A DNA stretch of 13,845 nt from positions 1-13,845 of the forward strand of contig JBIKUX010000042.1 of the NCBI GenBank assembly GCA_044347345.1, written 5' to 3'. Position numbers and translations under genes: made by a program. Below the pieces are notes generated by a model that worked only from the letters and a program-made list of their open reading frames with translations, made no database searches and was not told the origin of the DNA. How positions within the stretch are numbered: the first letter of the stretch is position 1; each line of letters starts with the position of its first letter. Below, one piece after another: positions 1-13,482 of the stretch. Source of the stretch: Bdellovibrionota bacterium (lineage in GTDB: Bacteria; Bdellovibrionota_C; UBA2361; JBIKUX01).

Positions 1-28
1 CTACTACTACTACTACTACTACTACTAC
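1..28 (+). repeat. (CTA/ACT)n trinucleotide microsatellite, at least 9 units, truncated by window edge; encodes poly-Thr
   Basis: ctactactactactactactactactac read directly, then degenerate acg aat act aat act. Confidence 0.95.
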
Positions 29-431
29 GAATACTAATACTAGTCCTGTTACCATTGACGACTTTGGACAAATTTTCGAAGAACCTCACTTCGCACTGGA
101 ATACAATAGACAAGTCATCCCGATTTACACAACCGATTCCAACTTCGAGTCATACCTGGATAAATTTCCGACAAGTGAGGAGACAATAGCAATAGCTAAG
201 TTAGTTTCAAGTGTATACGCGCTCACTCCCTTAGAGGATAATAATTTGAGGGAACCGGCAATTTTTATTGATAACAGCGGTAACCCCTATATAGGGCATA
301 TTTCAGAGAACACGTCAGAAAACACGTCAGAGAAAACGGTGATAATAACACACATGATTACTCGCTTTGACAATAATGGCATTCAAAATATTAGTCTAGT
401 ACCAGCGAGAGCTCAAATAATTATAGAATAA
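3..431 (+). CDS. 5'-truncated hypothetical protein (at least 142 aa) with a Thr-rich linker
   Basis: The frame of the listed 246..431 ORF is open back to position 3: TTTTTTTTTNTNTSPVTIDDFGQIFEEPHFALEYNRQVIPIY...ARAQIIIE*. The TTG at 246 is therefore probably internal. No family recognised. Confidence 0.7.
   Translation, partial: TTTTTTTTTNTNTSPVTIDDFGQIFEEPHFALEYNRQVIPIYTTDSNFESYLDKFPTSEETIAIAKLVSSVYALTPLEDNNLREPAIFIDNSGNPYIGHISENTSENTSEKTVIITHMITRFDNNGIQNISLVPARAQIIIE
303..338 (+). repeat. 12-bp in-frame tandem repeat x3 (SENT-SENT-SEKT)
   Basis: tcagagaacacg / tcagaaaacacg / tcagagaaaacg. Confidence 0.9.
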
Positions 432-537: not shown

Positions 538-1617
538 TCATAACATCTGATTTTGATTGCGGTTTCGAATATACCGCAGATTTTGTTTTAGAATAGCAAT
601 TACAGGAGCTACGTTAGGGTCATTACGATACGGTTTTGCTAATTTAAGTGAAAACGACTTGACAACTTGTTTGTATGAAATAGTTGGACTAGCTCGCATC
701 CATCTCAAAAGATTTATAAGACCAAGATTATTACGTAAAGCAAAAAACAATGCTGGGTTATCAGCTAACTGAAATCTAGCCAACCCATTTTTATAATGCC
801 TGTAAATGCAATTAAGCTGCATATCGGTTAGCTTCAATGGGTCAGATGCCACTTTTAACGAAATGTTTCCTAACAAGAGTGCAGGTAGAGCTTGATGAGC
901 GCCTGTTGACCACGAACCCACCCACTTAGTTGCTCCATCAAGGGCAACTATAGCTTTTGGAGTATTTGGCTCCAAAGAATCTGTTGCAAACCAAATACCT
1001 CTGAAGAGATCTCGCAAAAATAGTATTGAACTGCCTGAATGCTCAAAACGAAGCCCTATCTCAGGAACACCAGTAACAAGCCGTAATTTAGCCAACCAAG
1101 ACGCTTGCGCAGTATCTGTAGCTGGCGAAAATAGGGCTTGAGAAGTAAGCCCAGAAAATGTGATCCTAAGCCATCTTTTACTTCCCCAAATAACGGCGAT
1201 ACGAGGTTTTTCGGGCGAATCACCAAAATTCTGATAGCCAATTAGACTTCCGCCCACTAATTTTGGGCTCAATAATAACTTTCTCGCATCATCACTATCC
1301 TTAACCTCTTGCGCTAGTGTTGAGACCGCTGGACCATCTAGCCCGATACTATAAGAAAGCTTCTTTGCAAGTATACGACTTTGTCCGCCATAAGCGTCTT
1401 CATCAGCAAAGAGAGAAACGAGCAGAGGTGAAGAAGGGACACAGAGATGTACAAAAACATATTGTCCGAAGGAAAGTATACTTCCGATTAGCAAGACAAC
1501 AAGTACCGATTTTTTATTTCGAGAGACCGTAAATAAAACTATAATACCGATTAGCGCTGCCACTGCTGGAAGCACTAGCAGCTGAGTAGACGGCAAAAAA
1601 GACAAAGTCCTACTCAT
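538..1617 (-). CDS. Hypothetical membrane-anchored protein: 2 N-terminal TM helices, alpha/beta domain, degenerate TPR-like C-terminus
   Basis: 359-aa ORF. Hydrophobic segments LLVLPAVAALIGIIVLFTV and VLVVLLIGSILSFGQYVFVHL. C-terminal HYKNGLARFQLADNPALFFALRNNLGLI resembles the TPR pattern 'Y..AL......P...A....NNLG'. Overlaps the upstream gene by 8 nt. Confidence 0.7.
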   Translation of the reverse strand: MSRTLSFLPSTQLLVLPAVAALIGIIVLFTVSRNKKSVLVVLLIGSILSFGQYVFVHLCVPSSPLLVSLFADEDAYGGQSRILAKKLSYSIGLDGPAVSTLAQEVKDSDDARKLLLSPKLVGGSLIGYQNFGDSPEKPRIAVIWGSKRWLRITFSGLTSQALFSPATDTAQASWLAKLRLVTGVPEIGLRFEHSGSSILFLRDLFRGIWFATDSLEPNTPKAIVALDGATKWVGSWSTGAHQALPALLLGNISLKVASDPLKLTDMQLNCIYRHYKNGLARFQLADNPALFFALRNNLGLINLLRWMRASPTISYKQVVKSFSLKLAKPYRNDPNVAPVIAILKQNLRYIRNRNQNQML

Positions 1618-2035
1618 CTATTTCCAGATACAAATTAAGAAACTTGGGCAGAGTCAGAGAAGAATTAGGATCTAAAATTTCTTGAAAATCTTTGGTAGTT
1701 AATAGTACTAATTTCACTCCCGATGCTTGCAAAAAATATGGTAATGCCGCCTGACTTTCAAGCAAGCTTAAGTCTATAGCCTCTCCACTTGAGGCTGAAA
1801 AATCAACTACCAAGCGAGGATTTTGGCCGTAATCTACCACAGTAAATAGGCACCGAGTACTTCGTGCCCAGCCAGATAACTCATCACGACTTCTTACCTC
1901 CTTTTCGTCTGGAAAGCTCTCTGGAACCTCTCCACCGCTTACAGCTAATGCGCTCATTCCAAAGATTACTTGATCTTCACCAAAAACGGCTGTGAGCATC
2001 CGAAACAGTTGCGCCTCTTTTACCTCCATCACCAC
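1610..2035 (-). CDS. DUF2726-like (PD-(D/E)xK/Vsr-like fold) protein, catalytic residues apparently degenerate
   Basis: 141-aa ORF. EAQLFRMLTAVFGEDQVIFGM...RCLFTVVD..QNPRLVVDF...FLQASGVKLVLL follows the remembered DUF2726 pattern (E..F...L......VF..V...HVDFV..D....P...IELD.....AGIPL). AAAGGAG lies upstream of the GTG. CDS is likely; the family call is by eye. Confidence 0.55.
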   Translation of the reverse strand: MVMEVKEAQLFRMLTAVFGEDQVIFGMSALAVSGGEVPESFPDEKEVRSRDELSGWARSTRCLFTVVDYGQNPRLVVDFSASSGEAIDLSLLESQAALPYFLQASGVKLVLLTTKDFQEILDPNSSLTLPKFLNLYLEIDE

Positions 2036-2598: not shown

Positions 2599-3639
2599 GT
2601 GACTATACCAAATAACTTTTCTTCCGAATTAACCCCCCCAGCTAAACCGTTAAGAATTGTTTTTTTTGGAACTCCCGAGTTTGCAGTTACTATTTTACGC
2701 GCCCTTTGTGAACTTAAGGGTATTGAAGTCGTACTATGCGTAACTCAACCTGATACTCCGCAGGGACGCGGCAAAAAAATTACTCCGTCACCTGTAAAAG
2801 CTTATGCAACTGCACAAGGTATCCCCATCTATCAGCCTCAGCGGCTTAAATCTGATAGGAACGAGGTAGAAAAAACTTTAGGTAATTTCGAGCCTTTCGA
2901 TGGAGCCGTAGTGGTTGCGTTTGGACAAATCTTACCTAAGTGGTTACTTGAATTATTTAATAGCCGCTGCGTAAACGTGCATGCTTCATTATTGCCACAA
3001 CTAAGGGGAGCTGCACCAATTATACGAGCTATACTTGAAGGTCATACTCAAACCGGAATCTGCTTAATGAAAATGGAGGAAGGCTTAGATAGTGGCCCCG
3101 TCTATAAATGTGCGGCTATCCCTGTAACCAGTACTACTACCGGTGGAGAACTTCATGATGCATTAGCAGAACTTGGAAGCGCGCTAATAAAAGATTGGAT
3201 TCAAGATATTTTGAGAGGAGATGTAATAGCTAAGCCACAAGACGAAAATAACGCCTCTTATGCCGCTAAAATTTCCTCCACAGATCGCATTATAGATTGG
3301 AAATTATCAGCAGACCAAATAGAAAGAACAATTAGAGCTTTTGCTCCCTCACCTTGCGCTGTTTCAGAAGTAGTACTAAATACTTCTAAATTAGAGCGTA
3401 TAAAAATAGGTGAAGCGCGCGTAAGCAATTTTAACGAAACTTCACCTTATCTATCATCGCCACCAGGCACAATTATTTCTGTAAACGGCGACTCCCTAGG
3501 AGATGGTCTTGTAGTTCGATGCGGAGTTGGTTGTCTCGTCCTTACTCGGCTACAACGTTCAGGTCGTTTAATGAATAATTGGAACGAAATTAAAAAGAGT
3601 GGAATATTTCAACTCGGAATGCAATTTCATATCAATTAA
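2599..3639 (+). CDS. fmt: Methionyl-tRNA formyltransferase
   Basis: LRIVFFGTPEFA, VTQPD..GRG, VVAFGQILP, NVHASLLP..RGAAPI, GLDSGP; directly follows def. Confidence 0.97.
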   Translation: MTIPNNFSSELTPPAKPLRIVFFGTPEFAVTILRALCELKGIEVVLCVTQPDTPQGRGKKITPSPVKAYATAQGIPIYQPQRLKSDRNEVEKTLGNFEPFDGAVVVAFGQILPKWLLELFNSRCVNVHASLLPQLRGAAPIIRAILEGHTQTGICLMKMEEGLDSGPVYKCAAIPVTSTTTGGELHDALAELGSALIKDWIQDILRGDVIAKPQDENNASYAAKISSTDRIIDWKLSADQIERTIRAFAPSPCAVSEVVLNTSKLERIKIGEARVSNFNETSPYLSSPPGTIISVNGDSLGDGLVVRCGVGCLVLTRLQRSGRLMNNWNEIKKSGIFQLGMQFHIN

Positions 3640-3691
3640 CCTCAATGCTTTTTTGAATAAACCGTCTTAATATTTTACTGGTATTTTTTGA

Positions 3692-4372
3692 ATGACAAAA
3701 TCATCAGGCCAAATTCTTCCATCGCTTCTTAACGCTGACATCGGCTCACTTAGGTCGAGCATTGAATCATTAAAACTGACAGGAGCAAGCGGATTTCATC
3801 TCGATATTATGGATGGTCATTTTGTACCACCCATATCATTTGGAGATAATATCTCATCGCTACTAAACTCATTGGGTGTTTCTGAAATAGAAACTCATCT
3901 CATGGTTGCCAATCCAGAGCGTCACATTGATTCATTTATAGCTGCTGGTAGCACCCGCATAATTTTTCATTACGAAGCGTCTCACCATTCACACAGACTT
4001 CTTAGCTATATAAAAACTCAGAAAATAGAAACTGGAATAGCCATAAATCCCGGAACTCCTCTAGCTATGATTGAGGACGTTATTGAGTTATGTGACGTAC
4101 TTCTTATTATGACCGTAAATCCTGGTTGGGGCGGACAATCTTTTATCTCTAGCTCGTTACGTAAGATTTCTGATGCCGCCGAAATTATCAAAAAACGAAG
4201 ACTTGATACAAAAATTGAGGTTGATGGAGGTATTAACGAGGCTACCATTACTTTTTGCCGTAACGCTGGTGCTTCTCTATTTGTTGTGGGAAGTGCTCTC
4301 TTTAAAAATTTAGACCCAGCAGGCCAATTTAATAATCTCAGTAATCTCCTCTGCTCCGAGCAAGCAAATTAA
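3692..4372 (+). CDS. rpe: Ribulose-phosphate 3-epimerase
   Basis: HLDIMDGHFVP, ETHLMV, MTVNPGWGGQSF, IEVDGGIN, VVGSALF. Confidence 0.96.
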   Translation: MTKSSGQILPSLLNADIGSLRSSIESLKLTGASGFHLDIMDGHFVPPISFGDNISSLLNSLGVSEIETHLMVANPERHIDSFIAAGSTRIIFHYEASHHSHRLLSYIKTQKIETGIAINPGTPLAMIEDVIELCDVLLIMTVNPGWGGQSFISSSLRKISDAAEIIKKRRLDTKIEVDGGINEATITFCRNAGASLFVVGSALFKNLDPAGQFNNLSNLLCSEQAN

Positions 4373-4418
4373 GATTTACTGAATAAATAATTGTGCTAAC
4401 AGTTTCGGAAATCTTGGC

Positions 4419-4889
4419 GTGAGAATTTTTTTGGCATTTCTTTACATTTTGCCATTACTTGGATGTAGTCAAACTGCTGAACCACTATCCACTTCTCGCC
4501 TATCCACTTCTCGCTTACCTACTTTTGGCTCATTGCCACAAGCCCTTAAGTATCTGTCAGAAGAAAAGATTGACGGCCTTTTTATTTACTTTTATTCATC
4601 TTCCTGTTTGCCTTGCAGAGTTTTTGAACAAAAAGTTTTAAATGATGAAACATTTAAAAATTCATTCTCTAATATCCCAATTGTTAAAGTACAAGTTGAC
4701 GGAACAGTTAATGAGATGGCTCAAAGTATAAAATTTGGCATCAAACAAACTCCTTCATTTTTCGTTGCGCGAGCAAGAGATATTCCAGTCCAGATACCCC
4801 TAAGATCTCAGAAAGGTTGTGGAATTAAGTGTATAGATTTAACCAAGCTTGTTTATAAAATTAAGCATATTTTAAGGGCGGAAAAGTGA
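4419..4889 (+). CDS. Thioredoxin-fold lipoprotein (CxxC)
   Basis: Signal peptide with lipobox LLG-C16; FYSSSCLPC (C63/C66); cis-Pro-like QTPSF; extra C-terminal GCGIKC. Stop overlaps the receptor start (GTGA). Confidence 0.85.
   Translation: MRIFLAFLYILPLLGCSQTAEPLSTSRLSTSRLPTFGSLPQALKYLSEEKIDGLFIYFYSSSCLPCRVFEQKVLNDETFKNSFSNIPIVKVQVDGTVNEMAQSIKFGIKQTPSFFVARARDIPVQIPLRSQKGCGIKCIDLTKLVYKIKHILRAEK
4485..4529 (+). repeat. 15-bp in-frame tandem repeat (2 perfect + 1 degenerate copy) in the lipoprotein tether
   Basis: ctatccacttctcgc ctatccacttctcgc ttacctacttttggc = LSTSR LSTSR LPTFG. Confidence 0.9.
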
Positions 4890-6958
4890 CGAATTGTCGC
4901 CTATTAAATTGGGTCAGCACCACTATTTTTTCATTAAGTTTTTTCTCATTAGCTATAGCTCAGGAAAATACGGAAATGTTGAATAGTTTTTCAACTGAGG
5001 TAGTTGTAACTGGCACCAGAACGGAAAACACTTTAAGTGAGGTTCCTGTCCGCACCGAAGTTATCAAAAGAAAGCAAATTGAACAGACCAGTTCTCGAAA
5101 TCTAGCCGACGCTGTTGAATTTACTACCGGCGTGCGAGTAGAAGATAATTGTCAAAGTTGCAATTTTTCGCAGATTCGACTGAATGGTCTACCCGGTTCA
5201 TTCACTCAAATTCTTTTCGATTCTCAGCCAACAATATCTTCTTTGGCCGCAGTTTATGGGATTGAGCAAATCCCCTCTCGTCTTATCGAAAGAATTGAAG
5301 TTGTAAAAGGGGGAGCATCTTCTATTTACGGGCCAGGCGCTATCGGAGGGATTATTAACGTAATTCCCTATATTCCGGCAAAAACTGGAGTAAAAGCCGA
5401 ATACCGATTTGAATATATGGACGGCTCTACCGGCGATAGTAGTAGTGGATTTAATCATGGCTCTAATGGCTCACTAGACTACGTCAGTGATGACAGGTAC
5501 TCATTGGGAACTCTCTTTTTTCAAACAGATTTAGTAGAACCACTTGACTTAAACAGAGATGGTTTTACCGAAGTTTCCAATAGAGAGCTACAATCAATAG
5601 GAAGTCGATTTATTGAGCATCTCCCTAGTCAAAACGCTATGATCATATTTTTTTATTCTCATACTAATGAATACCGACGTGGAGGCGATAACATCGTCCG
5701 CCCTCCAACTGAAGTGAGCTTAGCAGAAGAAATTACCACCATTCGAGACGAAATCAGTACAACTTTTAATCAAACTGTTTCTCCATCTTTCGACTATCGA
5801 TTAACTTCAGGATTTTCTTCTGTTCAGCGCTCTTCCTATTACGGAGCCAATGGCAACCCCAATGCATTTGGTGACACGGAGAATCCGCTTATCAATCTTG
5901 ACTCGCAGTTTAACTATTATGGCTCTTTACTTGGTGATCACATTCTTTCATTCGGCATTCAGCGTCGAGACGAATATGTTGAGGATAATCTTCCAGGAGT
6001 TAATCGATTTATTGATGAGCACTACTTCTATACCGGTGTGTATCTACAAGATGAATACTCTCCTGCGGATAAAATTGACTTAGTTATCGGATCTCGAATT
6101 GATAAACATTCAGAAATTAACTCGCCTGTCATATCCCCTCGCCTCTCAATAAAATACTCTCCTAGAAATAACCTTCATCTCAGAAGTAGCGTTTCAACCG
6201 GATTTAGAGCACCACAAGTATTTGATGAAGATCTTCATCTAGCAATAGTCGGGGGTGAAGGCACTGTCATCCGAAACAGTGCAGATTTAGATGAAGAAAA
6301 AAGCATTAGCTACCAAAGTGGGGTTGAATGGACACCGCAACTCACAGATAAAACCATCGGCTTATTTGAGGCCAATCTATTTAACACTCTGATAAGTGAC
6401 TCCTTCTTTGTTGATCCGACGGATAATCCAGACACCATGGATCAATTTGAATTTACACGCATAAATCGTGGTGGTGCTGAAGTTTACGGTGTAGAACTTA
6501 ACCATGGCTACCGCTATGACAACCAATTTTCTGTAGATGCTGGATTTGTTTTTCAACGTGCTCGGTACGATAACCTAGACGATGATTTTAAAATTAGAGA
6601 TTTTTTCCGCACCCCACAAAACTACGGCATACTCTCCGGTTCATGGCAAAACAATGACATGTTTGATTTGTTTGTAGGATTAAAATACACAGGGCGGATG
6701 TTTATCCAGCATTATGCCGGATTTATTCCTGAAGATAAGCTCGAAGAGTCACCTAAATTCCTAACTGTAGATGCCTCTATTTCAAAAAAAATTCTGCTAC
6801 AGTTAATTAATAGAGAAGTTGTACTTACAGTTGGAGGAAGAAACATTACCAATGAATATCAAAGAGATTTTGACCAAGGGATTCTTCGTGATGCAGGGTA
6901 CCGCTATGGCCCCCGCTTTCCGCGGTCTTTCTATACTACCCTAGCGGTTAATTTCTAA
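4886..6958 (+). CDS. TonB-dependent outer-membrane receptor (CirA/FepA-like annotation class), CxxC-plug subtype
   Basis: Signal peptide ending AIA-QE; TonB box EVVVTG; plug motif IERIEVVKGGASSIYGPGAIGGIINVI; GFRAP; C-terminal Phe (LAVNF); plug CQSC. Confidence 0.95.
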   Translation: MTNCRLLNWVSTTIFSLSFFSLAIAQENTEMLNSFSTEVVVTGTRTENTLSEVPVRTEVIKRKQIEQTSSRNLADAVEFTTGVRVEDNCQSCNFSQIRLNGLPGSFTQILFDSQPTISSLAAVYGIEQIPSRLIERIEVVKGGASSIYGPGAIGGIINVIPYIPAKTGVKAEYRFEYMDGSTGDSSSGFNHGSNGSLDYVSDDRYSLGTLFFQTDLVEPLDLNRDGFTEVSNRELQSIGSRFIEHLPSQNAMIIFFYSHTNEYRRGGDNIVRPPTEVSLAEEITTIRDEISTTFNQTVSPSFDYRLTSGFSSVQRSSYYGANGNPNAFGDTENPLINLDSQFNYYGSLLGDHILSFGIQRRDEYVEDNLPGVNRFIDEHYFYTGVYLQDEYSPADKIDLVIGSRIDKHSEINSPVISPRLSIKYSPRNNLHLRSSVSTGFRAPQVFDEDLHLAIVGGEGTVIRNSADLDEEKSISYQSGVEWTPQLTDKTIGLFEANLFNTLISDSFFVDPTDNPDTMDQFEFTRINRGGAEVYGVELNHGYRYDNQFSVDAGFVFQRARYDNLDDDFKIRDFFRTPQNYGILSGSWQNNDMFDLFVGLKYTGRMFIQHYAGFIPEDKLEESPKFLTVDASISKKILLQLINREVVLTVGGRNITNEYQRDFDQGILRDAGYRYGPRFPRSFYTTLAVNF

Positions 6959-6987
6959 TCACAGATAAGTAACTAAGCTTTTATATT

Positions 6988-7680
6988 ATGTTCTGGTTCA
7001 GTATTTTAGCAATTTCATATTTAATCGGAATTTTCCCGACAGGAATGTTAATATCTCGTTATTACGGCATCAGAATAGAAGACGCTGGCAGTGGTAATGT
7101 TGGAGCCACTAATGTAGCTCGAATTATCGGGAAAAAAGCCGGGCTTTTAACACTTTTAGGAGACATGACAAAAGGAATTACAGCAACACTAATCGCTAGA
7201 TTATTGTGGAACCTGTTCATTCAAGACACAGATATAGTAAGTACTACATTACTGGGGAAATCACTTGGAAGCTCTTTTGCCATGGCCTTGGGAGGCCTTT
7301 TTGCAGTGCTGGGCCACTGTTTTTCATTACCATTTAATATTCCATTGCTATTTAATGTAACATTACCAGCACTAAGAGCGCTTAAGGGCGGAAAAGGTGT
7401 GGCTACGGGGCTTGGTGTTTTGCTAGCCGCTCAACCTATCCTAGCTCTTACCACTACTCTTTTATTCATTATCACCTTTTATTTTAGCCGCATCGTATCT
7501 CTTAGCTCTATAGTAGCTACTACATTAATGCCAATTATTTATCTTTTTCTTAACCCAAACGGAGAGCAATTTATTCCCTTTGCCATAATAGCAATAGTCA
7601 TCACTTACCGACATTCCTCAAATATTAAGCGGCTTATCGAGGGAACAGAAAAAAAGTTTACCTCTCGTAAAGAAAGTTAA
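6988..7680 (+). CDS. plsY: Glycerol-3-phosphate acyltransferase (acyl-phosphate dependent)
   Basis: SYLIG..P, GSGNVGATN, D..KG, GH, KGGKGVAT, HSSNIKRL..GTE. Confidence 0.95.
   Translation: MFWFSILAISYLIGIFPTGMLISRYYGIRIEDAGSGNVGATNVARIIGKKAGLLTLLGDMTKGITATLIARLLWNLFIQDTDIVSTTLLGKSLGSSFAMALGGLFAVLGHCFSLPFNIPLLFNVTLPALRALKGGKGVATGLGVLLAAQPILALTTTLLFIITFYFSRIVSLSSIVATTLMPIIYLFLNPNGEQFIPFAIIAIVITYRHSSNIKRLIEGTEKKFTSRKES
7325..7368 (+). repeat. Degenerate 18-bp in-frame tandem repeat inside plsY
   Basis: cattaccatttaatattc / cattgctatttaatgtaa / cattacca... = LPFNIP LLFNVT LP. Confidence 0.65.
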
Positions 7681-7695
7681 ACTTTTCATTGTAGC

Positions 7696-8004
7696 TTAAG
7701 CTAATTCTATTGCATCACTTCCCACGAAAGAGATAGTTCCGTTATCCCACTGAACCTGAATAAGTAAGCTGTTTGGAGTAGACTCTTTTTTATTTGGACG
7801 AGTTTCTTTTCTTATCGAGAGAACGACTCCTTGACCTCCTGAATTAACTTGACTAGCGTGCCTTATTTTCCGAACTACTCTAGAATTCTCAGTTAAACCA
7901 TTCTCTATTGAACCAGTTACCGTTGAAGTAGGCACCTCTTCAGCACAAGACTTACCGACTGAACTCACATCTTCAAAACCTGCTTTTTTGGTATCGCTAG
8001 TCAT
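7696..8004 (-). CDS. Small hypothetical protein; C-terminal SH3-like beta-barrel (DUF4314/Mib-Herc2-like pattern)
   Basis: 102-aa ORF with ATG start and AAGGA RBS just upstream. RVVRK...GGQGVV...IQVQWDNGT pattern; fold call by eye. Confidence 0.65.
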   Translation of the reverse strand: MTSDTKKAGFEDVSSVGKSCAEEVPTSTVTGSIENGLTENSRVVRKIRHASQVNSGGQGVVLSIRKETRPNKKESTPNSLLIQVQWDNGTISFVGSDAIELA

Positions 8005-12600: not shown

Positions 12601-13482
12601 ATGAGTATGAATCTAAAATTACTATCAAAAATACCGATTCCTACTCAGGCTCGGACGTTAGTAGAACCATCGAGACAAGGCTTAAGCACCGCCAAAAAAA
12701 ATTTAGGGGAAGATTTTTCCATAACTTTGGATGAAACTGAGCAAGAAATTCTTACAACTCCCTCTTCACCAACGTCATCTGTTTCTTCAGAGTCTTCTTC
12801 AACTATCCCCAAACCACTTCCAGAGCTAGGAGAATTTCTTTCGCGACGTTTTACAATGAGCAATAAGCGATTCAATAAACAAGAAATATCTGAAGAAGAG
12901 GCATACAGACACATAATTTCTCATTCATTAAGACAACAAATTAGCCAAACAATAGGTGTAAACTTTGATACTTTATTTAGTGAAAATTACCCATCGATCT
13001 CACGACAATCTGGATTAGCTGGATTTGAAAAAGCAGCCGACCTTGCTCTGGATGAACTTGTTGAAAAAAGATTGATATCAGTAGACAAAAAAAACTCAAT
13101 TCAGGAAACTGCTTTTAAATTAGCACAATTTGATTCCGACACAAGCCAACTATACGATAGCTTTGCTGAAGGTTCACAAGATAGCACAGTAGCTAAGTTA
13201 TCTATAAATGATGCCTTAAAACGCATCTCTGTTAATTTAACTCAAAACGGGTCTGATACTGATAAAAGACCAAATAATAATAACGGTGACGATACCAACA
13301 ACGATATAGACGATATTACCGAAGAAAATGATAATTTTGCGGTTCCACAAACAGAACCGCGAGTAAGTAGCGTCAGCGTCTCCCCCAAAATAATACCGTC
13401 ATCAATACTTGAAGTTGAAGAAGATGACAATTCAACGGATAATCCCAAAGCACCGCCATCTGCAATAACCATTGTAGTTTAA
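12601..13482 (+). CDS. Hypothetical protein; Ser/Thr-rich N-region, helical core, acidic Asn/Asp-rich disordered tail
   Basis: 293-aa uninterrupted ORF filling the gap between lysA and the OmpA gene; no signal peptide or family recognised. Confidence 0.75.
   Translation: MSMNLKLLSKIPIPTQARTLVEPSRQGLSTAKKNLGEDFSITLDETEQEILTTPSSPTSSVSSESSSTIPKPLPELGEFLSRRFTMSNKRFNKQEISEEEAYRHIISHSLRQQISQTIGVNFDTLFSENYPSISRQSGLAGFEKAADLALDELVEKRLISVDKKNSIQETAFKLAQFDSDTSQLYDSFAEGSQDSTVAKLSINDALKRISVNLTQNGSDTDKRPNNNNGDDTNNDIDDITEENDNFAVPQTEPRVSSVSVSPKIIPSSILEVEEDDNSTDNPKAPPSAITIVV

Follow-up and report, generated by a model that had tools for sequence, protein, structure and literature searches.

The 13,845-nucleotide stretch of DNA analyzed here (hereafter, the window; positions 1 to 13,845 of contig JBIKUX010000042.1 of a Bdellovibrionota bacterium) carries two adjoining genes on the same strand, one for an exported thioredoxin-fold protein of 156 amino acids and one, immediately downstream, for a 690-amino-acid TonB-dependent outer-membrane receptor with a C-x-x-C motif in its plug domain. 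The two genes overlap by four nucleotides, GTGA, which contain the stop codon of the first and the start codon of the second, and the alignment of the set P0001-P0004, which includes the closest relatives of the receptor (P0002-P0004), starts at receptor M1. The junction is bridged, with 0 differences, by an independent freshwater metagenome contig (X12 record 4, positions 4742-5457). Every feature placed in this region by the initial annotation was re-found at the same position, and its description of a gene, here for a probable lipoprotein, coupled to a receptor gene holds, with the overlap defining a real, translationally coupled unit. Coordinates are collected in Table 1.

The larger protein has all the features that define a TonB-dependent receptor, namely, plug and barrel domains, the fold, a Ton-box-like segment, and a terminal aromatic residue. 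Its AlphaFold2 (AF2) model (pLDDT 78.9, pTM 0.82) matches, at a Foldseek probability of 1.00, Cir (9NN6; TMq 0.78) and PirA (5FR8; TMq 0.73). In the segment EVVVTGTR, which we take to be the Ton box, V40, V41, T44, and R45 are conserved in an alignment of 24 sequences (A1), in which the terminal F690 of the barrel is nearly invariant as well. The receptor shares with Cir, PirA, FepA, and BtuB the 22-strand barrel and plug fold (TMq 0.70-0.78) and the plug sequence framework, but is only 12-18% identical to them, and they lack both the C-x-x-C and the acidic, histidine-containing segment FDEDLH: at the aligned places, a gap and EGDN are found in Cir, and GGSG occupies the C-x-x-C site of BtuB. 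In the model, FDEDLH includes a short helix (residues 447-450) between strands 430-441 and 459-464, and strand parity would put it in extracellular loop 7. None of the NCBIfam models reaches its cut-off on the receptor, so that the family has no curated name in that collection; the memberships considered and rejected are those of the "CU motif-type" receptors (21 bits against a cut-off of 700), the "TOL_0244" receptors (71 bits against 645), and YncD/PRK13483 (131 bits against 927).

The two motifs are conserved across the family. Among 8000 candidates scored in a search of 5.8 billion clustered proteins, at least 1973 are homologues at E<=0.001, and in the best 120 of these, which are 46-100% identical to the receptor, C-x-x-C followed by N/G-F occupies the same position without exception (120/120). 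The commonest version is E-N-N-C-Q-N-C-N-F-S-Q-I-R-L-L-G-L, that is, the motif is mostly CQNC. Both C89 and C92, as well as the entire segment F446-H451, are invariant in alignment A1 (24/24). The plug cysteines singled out by the initial annotation are, then, a constant of the family, and, judging from the alignments, the conservation of CQSC and FDEDLH is far beyond chance. Genome and metagenome scans confirmed at least 564 and at least 334 loci, respectively, and by these matches the family appears to be very large and spread over many phyla, including gut Bacteroidales-type contigs. A metagenome scan with the receptor as a single query returned nothing, and the matches obtained with alignment A2 did not include the contigs of P0002-P0004.

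The smaller protein begins with MRIFLAFLYILPLLGC, a hydrophobic signal peptide with the motif L-L-G-C, in which Cys16 would be the lipidated residue. The proline at -4 departs from the strict PROSITE-type lipobox pattern, and for this reason the protein is, as predicted from the motif, only probably a lipoprotein. Its AF2 model (pLDDT 82.7, with residues 25-31 below 50) has as its best Foldseek matches the Thermus thioredoxin 2LST, the C-terminal domain of DsbD (2FWG/1VRS/1UC7), and DsbH (2JU5), with a probability of 1.00 for the thioredoxins and DsbD-gamma, and Pfam Thioredoxin_7 matches above its cut-off (3.4e-7; 30.7 bits, cut-off 27). A CxxC at the start of a helix, an invariant proline at the cis-Pro position, and the fold match together identify a thioredoxin fold; in an alignment of 10 sequences (A3), C66 is invariant and C63 nearly so, and P112 would, by the model, be the cis-Pro. 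The nearest solved folds, DsbD-gamma and Chlamydia DsbH (Foldseek TMt 0.62-0.73), point to a thioredoxin of the reducing type with predicted redox activity. Unlike these, the window protein is free-standing, has its own signal peptide or lipobox, is encoded by a gene coupled to that of a receptor, and contains an extra CxxxC, which is retained in two of three close relatives (P0122, KKCGITC; P0125, ECGVSC) and missing from P0123. This protein family is tiny and fast-evolving, with only four relatives at E<1e-10 when 1.84 billion representatives were searched exhaustively with HMMER, and a word-index search with the window protein matched nothing besides itself. One of the relatives, P0125 (29% identity), has CVPC and CGVSC along with two cysteines (C-S-G-C) in its hydrophobic N-terminus, and comes from the same source as P0002, the closest relative of the receptor (66% identity); for both, the longest contig measures 11,130 bases, so that the two genes probably share a contig. 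Another, the 3455-residue P0124, matches residues 83-130 of the window thioredoxin in 10 separate stretches (E 8e-13), as might be expected of a repeat protein in which a portion of a thioredoxin-like unit recurs.

Table 1. Features of the gene pair, genes next to it, and small upstream genes at other receptor loci
Feature	Position	Strand	Basis
Thioredoxin-fold gene, 156 aa, exported, DsbD-gamma/Thioredoxin_7-like	4419..4889	+	ORF call; Pfam, AF2 model, Foldseek
Signal peptide with L-L-G-C lipobox-like motif (Cys16), then low-complexity tether of ~20 residues	4419..4466	+	Read from sequence
CLPC (C63, C66), predicted thioredoxin active-site motif	4605..4616	+	Start of helix 64-74 in model
P112, putative cis-Pro position	4752..4754	+	Invariant among the 10 sequences of A3
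Second cysteine pair, C133-G-I-K-C137 (CxxxC)	4815..4829	+	Overlooked by the initial annotation
GTGA overlap, 4 nt	4886..4889	+	Thioredoxin TGA 4887-4889, receptor GTG 4886-4888, read directly
CQNC-family TonB-dependent receptor gene, 690 aa, motif CQSC	4886..6958	+	Pfam, AF2, Foldseek
Putative signal peptide, residues 1-25 (A-I-A then Q)	4886..4960	+	Reading of the sequence
Ton-box region EVVVTGTR, residues 38-45	4997..5020	+	Aligns to N-terminal Cir MVVTAS, BtuB LVVTAN
Plug domain, residues 50-156	5033..5353	+	Pfam PF07715, 3.1e-22, over cut-off
CQSC (C89, C92), plug first apical loop	5150..5161	+	BtuB alignment; family-wide conservation
Beta-barrel, residues 168-690	5387..6955	+	Model strands; Pfam PF00593, 6.2e-34, over cut-off
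FDEDLH, residues 446-451, acidic/His segment after barrel strand 13	6221..6238	+	Invariant in A1
def	1970-2584	As receptor pair	
fmt	2599-3639	As receptor pair	
rpe	3692-4372	As receptor pair	
plsY	6988-7680	As receptor pair	
Small upstream membrane proteins at other receptor loci	L005-L027, L035, L071, L074, L076 (e.g. L007:3249-3527); L123-L168 (e.g. L153:3189-3530)		Regex

The surroundings of the receptor across its family bear on whether the pairing is functional. We examined 160 loci, 80 from species-representative genomes and 80 from metagenomes, in which open reading frames (ORFs) were called; the immediate neighbors of the 80 genome loci were scanned against Pfam, and local hidden Markov models (HMMs) were then run against all ORFs of both sets. 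A TlpA/ResA-like CxxC protein is encoded immediately downstream of the receptor, on the same strand, in 37 of the 160 loci (genome, 19/80; metagenome, 18/80; or 18/69 and 17/64, respectively, when only loci with enough downstream DNA are counted), and only 7 further genes of this kind occur in the ~1.11 Mb of flanking DNA. These partners match AhpC-TSA, Redoxin, or Thioredoxin_8, mostly have the motif CAPC, and match ResA/TlpA models, none of them at the NCBIfam cut-off. They occur in Acidobacteriota, Myxococcota, and other metagenome-assembled genomes, and the sampled Bacteroidales/gut-type loci have a small His-rich membrane protein in their place, so the pairing is not peculiar to Bacteroidota, for which the initial annotation had mentioned it. 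A regulator of the DtxR/MntR family is part of the locus in 26 of the 160 cases (11/80 and 15/80), in 24 of them within 1 kb of the receptor, and in loci L110-L120, the receptor, the CAPC protein, and a divergently transcribed regulator form a recurring unit. In the Pfam scan, MntP, a ZIP transporter, and FeoB are neighbors of the receptor in single loci, and TonB, ExbD, or DUF3450 lies beside it in several. Two of the kinds of linkage that the initial annotation had recommended looking for, to exported CxxC thioredoxin-fold genes and to metal regulators, are thus present in the family, the first of them strongly.

The position directly upstream of the receptor, which in the window is occupied by the thioredoxin gene, has a tenant of its own in 79 of the 160 loci (by regular expression; 36/80 genome, 43/80 metagenome): a small membrane protein of 90-135 amino acids with an R-x-P-P tail and either CPAC or a His-rich H-x-H...H-S-H pattern. 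An HMM for the CPAC type finds it in 24 genome and 4 metagenome loci, and nothing significant was obtained for these proteins from Pfam or NCBIfam (DUF2946, E 0.18; LIC10965 family, E 0.008). They could serve the receptor as metal-binding partners or as sensors. On two gut-type contigs (L152:278-5983 and L153:277-5983), the unit of a small His-rich membrane protein and a CQNC receptor is present twice in tandem. In a rough, midpoint-rooted FastTree phylogeny of 143 receptors, from which 21 truncated ones were excluded, the type of partner tracks the receptor clade, and the window receptor, together with P0002-P0004, falls inside the larger group, in which the receptors are accompanied by a TlpA-like partner, by a DtxR regulator, or by neither.

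The window thioredoxin is not one of the partners known from the rest of the family. A phmmer search of the genes beside the receptors at the 80 genome loci found no meaningful homologue (best E 0.017), and an HMM of four thioredoxin sequences gave marginal matches only, to TlpA-like proteins (E 0.0008-0.0024). Its assignment to the TlpA/ResA-type partners was likewise rejected: its score with an HMM built from 11 TlpA-like partners is 3.8 bits, and it has no Pfam match to AhpC-TSA or Redoxin at E<=0.01, carries CLPC rather than CAPC, and is encoded upstream.

A module of this kind has already been proposed in print in 2025-2026, and, judging from the sequences, what the window adds to it is a non-orthologous thioredoxin partner. 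In Stenotrophomonas maltophilia Sm18, orf2357/orf2358 are described as a CQNC-type receptor and a downstream periplasmic thioredoxin-fold protein, pTFP, with the motif CAPC and conserved synteny, the receptor being MntR-regulated and induced by limitation for Mn and Fe (PMC13217887). The authors propose that Mn is bound by the CQNC together with barrel residues and that pTFP is the CQNC reductase, a function that, as they state, remains to be determined (PMC13217887; preprint 10.1101/2025.10.14.682371). Gene order and motif are as in that description wherever a CAPC protein is encoded downstream of the receptor, and the window resembles it, as published, in having a plug C-x-x-C receptor beside an exported CxxC thioredoxin-fold gene. 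It differs in the motif CQSC, in that no MntR gene or box was seen beside the pair, and in the partner, which in the window is upstream, overlapping, Thioredoxin_7/DsbD-gamma-like, probably lipid-anchored, and equipped with CGIKC in addition to CLPC. The family is termed sparsely distributed in the text of Argueta-Zepeda et al. 2026 (Curr Res Microb Sci; PMC13217887), against the abundance of matches and loci found here. The initial annotation, which knew of no established function for such a pair and suggested that the lipoprotein keeps or cycles the plug dithiol for metal binding or redox gating, had essentially arrived at a hypothesis already published for Stenotrophomonas; in the published description, too, the function is proposed only.

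Where a periplasmic thioredoxin could meet the plug cysteines depends on the face on which they lie. The C-x-x-C region aligns to BtuB without gaps (C89=58, C92=61, F94=63, Q96=65), and the BtuB SB1 sites 63 and 65 are described as lying on the extracellular face (PMC8341980). By this alignment, C89 and C92 most likely belong to the first apical loop and, once the plug is folded, lie toward its extracellular side. Pairs of cysteines engineered on the extracellular face of BtuB are reported to stay labelable only in a Dsb-deficient strain (PMC8341980; 10.1101/711663), which indicates that such cysteines encounter the Dsb system during export. With the cysteines turned outward after folding, a periplasmic thioredoxin would most likely act on them before assembly, during biogenesis, or when the plug unfolds. 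Cycling of the dithiol in the folded plug, one of the two options raised initially, accordingly appears unlikely, and its maintenance during export and assembly, or on a plug unfolded by TonB, fits better. FDEDLH is placed on the outward side as well, and the two motifs could form one site. A complex prediction for receptor residues 27-690 and thioredoxin residues 17-156 gave scores of 0.00 and 0.01 against a mark of 0.32 and carries no weight either way.

We consider it about an even bet that the receptor is a TonB-dependent importer of Mn2+ and/or Fe2+ whose plug dithiol contributes to the ion site and is looked after by a thioredoxin-fold keeper, in this lineage a DsbD-gamma-like protein in place of a TlpA-like one. 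The two genes would then be one operon-like unit that brings a divalent transition metal, most likely Mn2+ and/or Fe2+, across the outer membrane. The metal site would consist of the thiols or thiolates of the plug cysteines, within an extracellular pocket, and conserved residues of the barrel, for which FDEDLH in loop 7 provides candidates. On its way through a periplasm that contains Dsb proteins, the C-x-x-C would become oxidized, hence, we propose, the co-expression of an exported thioredoxin-fold reductase that would keep the pair as a dithiol, or reset it, either while the receptor is still unfolded, up to its assembly, or while TonB is drawing segments of the plug into the periplasm. 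The keeper would be a downstream TlpA/ResA-like protein in most lineages and an upstream, DsbD-gamma-like, probably lipid-anchored thioredoxin in that of the window.

Electrons for the thioredoxin would be drawn from the only DsbD_TM protein of the genome (G000:C64; L088:1480-2709), in which a membrane domain and a C-terminal Thioredoxin_7 domain were recognized in 409 residues and an N-terminal alpha domain was not detected. The C-terminal domain of this candidate donor belongs to the same Pfam family as the window thioredoxin, with 26% identity over 78 residues. A possible route across the inner membrane is offered by a gene for a ZnuA/TroA-type metal-binding protein (G000:C59:59372-60825), which adjoins a gene for a DtxR-family regulator; a second DtxR-family match, in an open frame of 459 amino acids, lies ~3 kb from it. 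Altogether, three genes for DtxR-family regulators are present elsewhere in the genome, as are three further TonB-dependent receptors and two TonB_C proteins, and no Nramp gene was found in this genome, which is 95.8% complete.

As for the metal, the regulators of the DtxR/MntR family and the neighboring MntP, ZIP, and FeoB favor Mn or Fe and, possibly, Zn. They do not point to the whole of the list offered initially (Zn, Cu, Ni, Co, or Fe), which lacked Mn. Overall, the observation from which this study started is confirmed, and its interpretation is supported in part.

Parallels to the individual parts of this scheme exist. Dedicated exported thioredoxin-fold reductases keep the metal- or heme-binding cysteines of one client reduced although the compartment is oxidizing, as TlpA does for ScoI and CoxB in Bradyrhizobium and ResA/CcmG for apocytochrome c. 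There, the client belongs to the respiratory machinery of the inner membrane, whereas here it would be the plug of an outer-membrane barrel; moreover, TlpA and ResA are matched by the downstream partners of the sister clades and not by the window protein. Direct binding of a metal by side chains of a TonB-dependent receptor under metal-responsive regulation is the mode of uptake by OprC/NosA (Cu) and ZnuD (Zn), the latter only a weak match to the window receptor (35 bits against a cut-off of 950). To our knowledge, no plug C-x-x-C is present, and no thioredoxin partner has been described, for OprC/NosA, ZnuD, or MnoT. The last of these is cited as a TonB-dependent transporter of Mn (10.1101/2025.10.14.682371).

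Several points weigh against the proposed importer and its keeper. Cysteine thiolates are unusual ligands for Mn2+, so that Fe2+, Zn2+, or another softer metal is a possibility, and the ligand, the redox state, and the target of the thioredoxin rest on proposal, in the published model as well as here. The plug cysteines, on the extracellular side, would not be accessible to a periplasmic protein as long as the plug is in its ground state; their loop (residues 89-105) is modeled at pLDDT<50, so any geometry of the site and any closeness to FDEDLH are tentative. Many members of the family (for example, the tree tips marked n) have no gene for a CxxC partner nearby, and the window thioredoxin is not TlpA-like, nor is any of the 160 other receptors accompanied by a homologue of it; what ties it to its receptor is that the two genes adjoin and overlap and that the pairing is probably conserved in one further case. 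The pair itself is set in a housekeeping run (def, fmt, rpe, plsY), with no DtxR/MntR gene among the window genes by Pfam, and scans for promoters, terminators, and inverted repeats in 3600-7800 and 4300-4480 gave counts not above those of shuffled sequences and no operator-like palindrome.

One alternative makes the lipoprotein part of a metal relay and not a reductase. Conceivably, although we think it unlikely, it is a Sco-like periplasmic metallochaperone that uses CLPC and CGIKC to take over the ion, through an exchange of ligands with the plug cysteines after TonB has displaced the plug, and passes it to an ABC importer by way of the binding protein of the latter. The retention of the second cysteine pair in P0122 and P0125 agrees with such a relay, and so do the ZnuA/TroA-type protein of the genome, the covariation of partner type and receptor clade, which is what interacting partners are expected to show, and the small CPAC or His-rich proteins in the equivalent upstream slot of other clades, which resemble metal ligands more than enzymes. 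The fold, with its invariant CxxC and cis-Pro, is nevertheless that of redox-active thioredoxins, the closest structures are those of DsbD-gamma and DsbH, and the TlpA/ResA-like partners of the sister clades are, by family, classic reductases. With equally low confidence, one can envisage a more general scheme in which the CQNC receptors form the outer-membrane terminus of a metal route that works by exchange of thiol and imidazole ligands, with interchangeable partners, the TlpA-like CAPC proteins, the DsbD-gamma-like lipoprotein with CLPC and CxxxC, and the small R-x-P-P-tailed CPAC/His-rich proteins, recruited independently by different lineages. The window lipoprotein, tethered to the outer membrane, would then dock beneath the receptor and accept the ion from the plug cysteines on unfolding by TonB, as a metal-accepting chaperone rather than a mere reductase.

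A different possibility, which we hold to be no less improbable, dispenses with the thiolate-metal bond: the C-x-x-C would be a structural or gating disulfide, for instance, a redox switch by which oxidative stress would close the channel, formed, isomerized, or opened by the partners, and the ligand might be a chelate or another small molecule. The Dsb system normally oxidizes exported cysteine pairs (compare the BtuB labeling described in PMC8341980), the nearest named relatives of the receptor (Cir, PirA, BtuB) carry chelates and cofactors, and the poorly modeled loop yields no geometric argument for metal binding. However, a disulfide between cysteines two residues apart does little to stabilize a protein and is typically seen at redox or metal sites, the partners belong to the TlpA/ResA/DsbD-gamma type, which is reductive, DtxR/MntR regulators and metal transporters are found in linkage with the family, and the invariant acidic/His segment suits an ion site.

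Finally, the adjacency of the two genes might be fortuitous, with the lipoprotein being the general periplasmic reductase of the lineage, a DsbH-like housekeeping protein that became a neighbor of the receptor by chance. This, too, we consider doubtful, although the lack of orthology to the partners beside the 160 other receptors, the housekeeping surroundings without a metal regulator, and the small, fast-evolving thioredoxin family would all be in keeping with it. Searches of 40 genomes from the same order turned up neither gene, a result that can be read as favoring chance but also fits a joint gain because both genes are missing together. Against mere adjacency stand, furthermore, the start/stop overlap of 4 nucleotides, the nearest relatives of both genes (P0125 and P0002), probably on one contig, and the strong, position-specific pairing of the receptor family with exported CxxC proteins. 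The base composition of the pair is that of its surroundings, and its place between rpe and plsY, together with its absence from the 40 relatives, suggests an old lineage-specific gain or repeated loss.

On the same strand of the window, the gene order is def, fmt, rpe, the 156-amino-acid ORF, the 690-amino-acid ORF, and plsY. Four other ORFs have no Pfam match at E<=0.01, namely, 538-1617 (-), 1610-2035 (-), 7696-8004 (-), and 12601-13482 (+), with 359, 141, 102, and 293 amino acids, the last one rich in Ser, Thr, Asp, and Asn; ORF 3-431 (+), open at its 5' end, starts with a run of nine threonines followed by more Thr/Asn repeats. Lake-water metagenome runs from numerous studies contain the stretch at full length, and its source may be among these runs; independent contigs from lakes and freshwater have the same DNA. 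Short identical contigs from two metatranscriptome runs, both belonging to a single study, cover parts of rpe, plsY, and receptor positions 6192-6398, with none on the thioredoxin gene, at most a weak hint of expression, which demonstrates neither transcription nor its absence.

The passage of free metal ions, as opposed to chelates, through TonB-dependent receptors of the outer membrane is understood for very few systems, and we know of no described system in which a plug dithiol serves the import of a free metal. The receptors discussed here form a very large family, across many phyla, with a function that so far rests on proposal, and the central idea about this function is not new. The repeated recruitment of different CxxC or His-rich partners is the most informative new point: that a second, unrelated thioredoxin-fold protein is coupled to the same type of receptor suggests that it is the receptor itself that calls for an exported CxxC partner, rather than this being an accident of one lineage. 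The published model is sharpened as well in that the reductase step would take place before assembly or during unfolding of the plug and is, hence, open to assays of the redox state.

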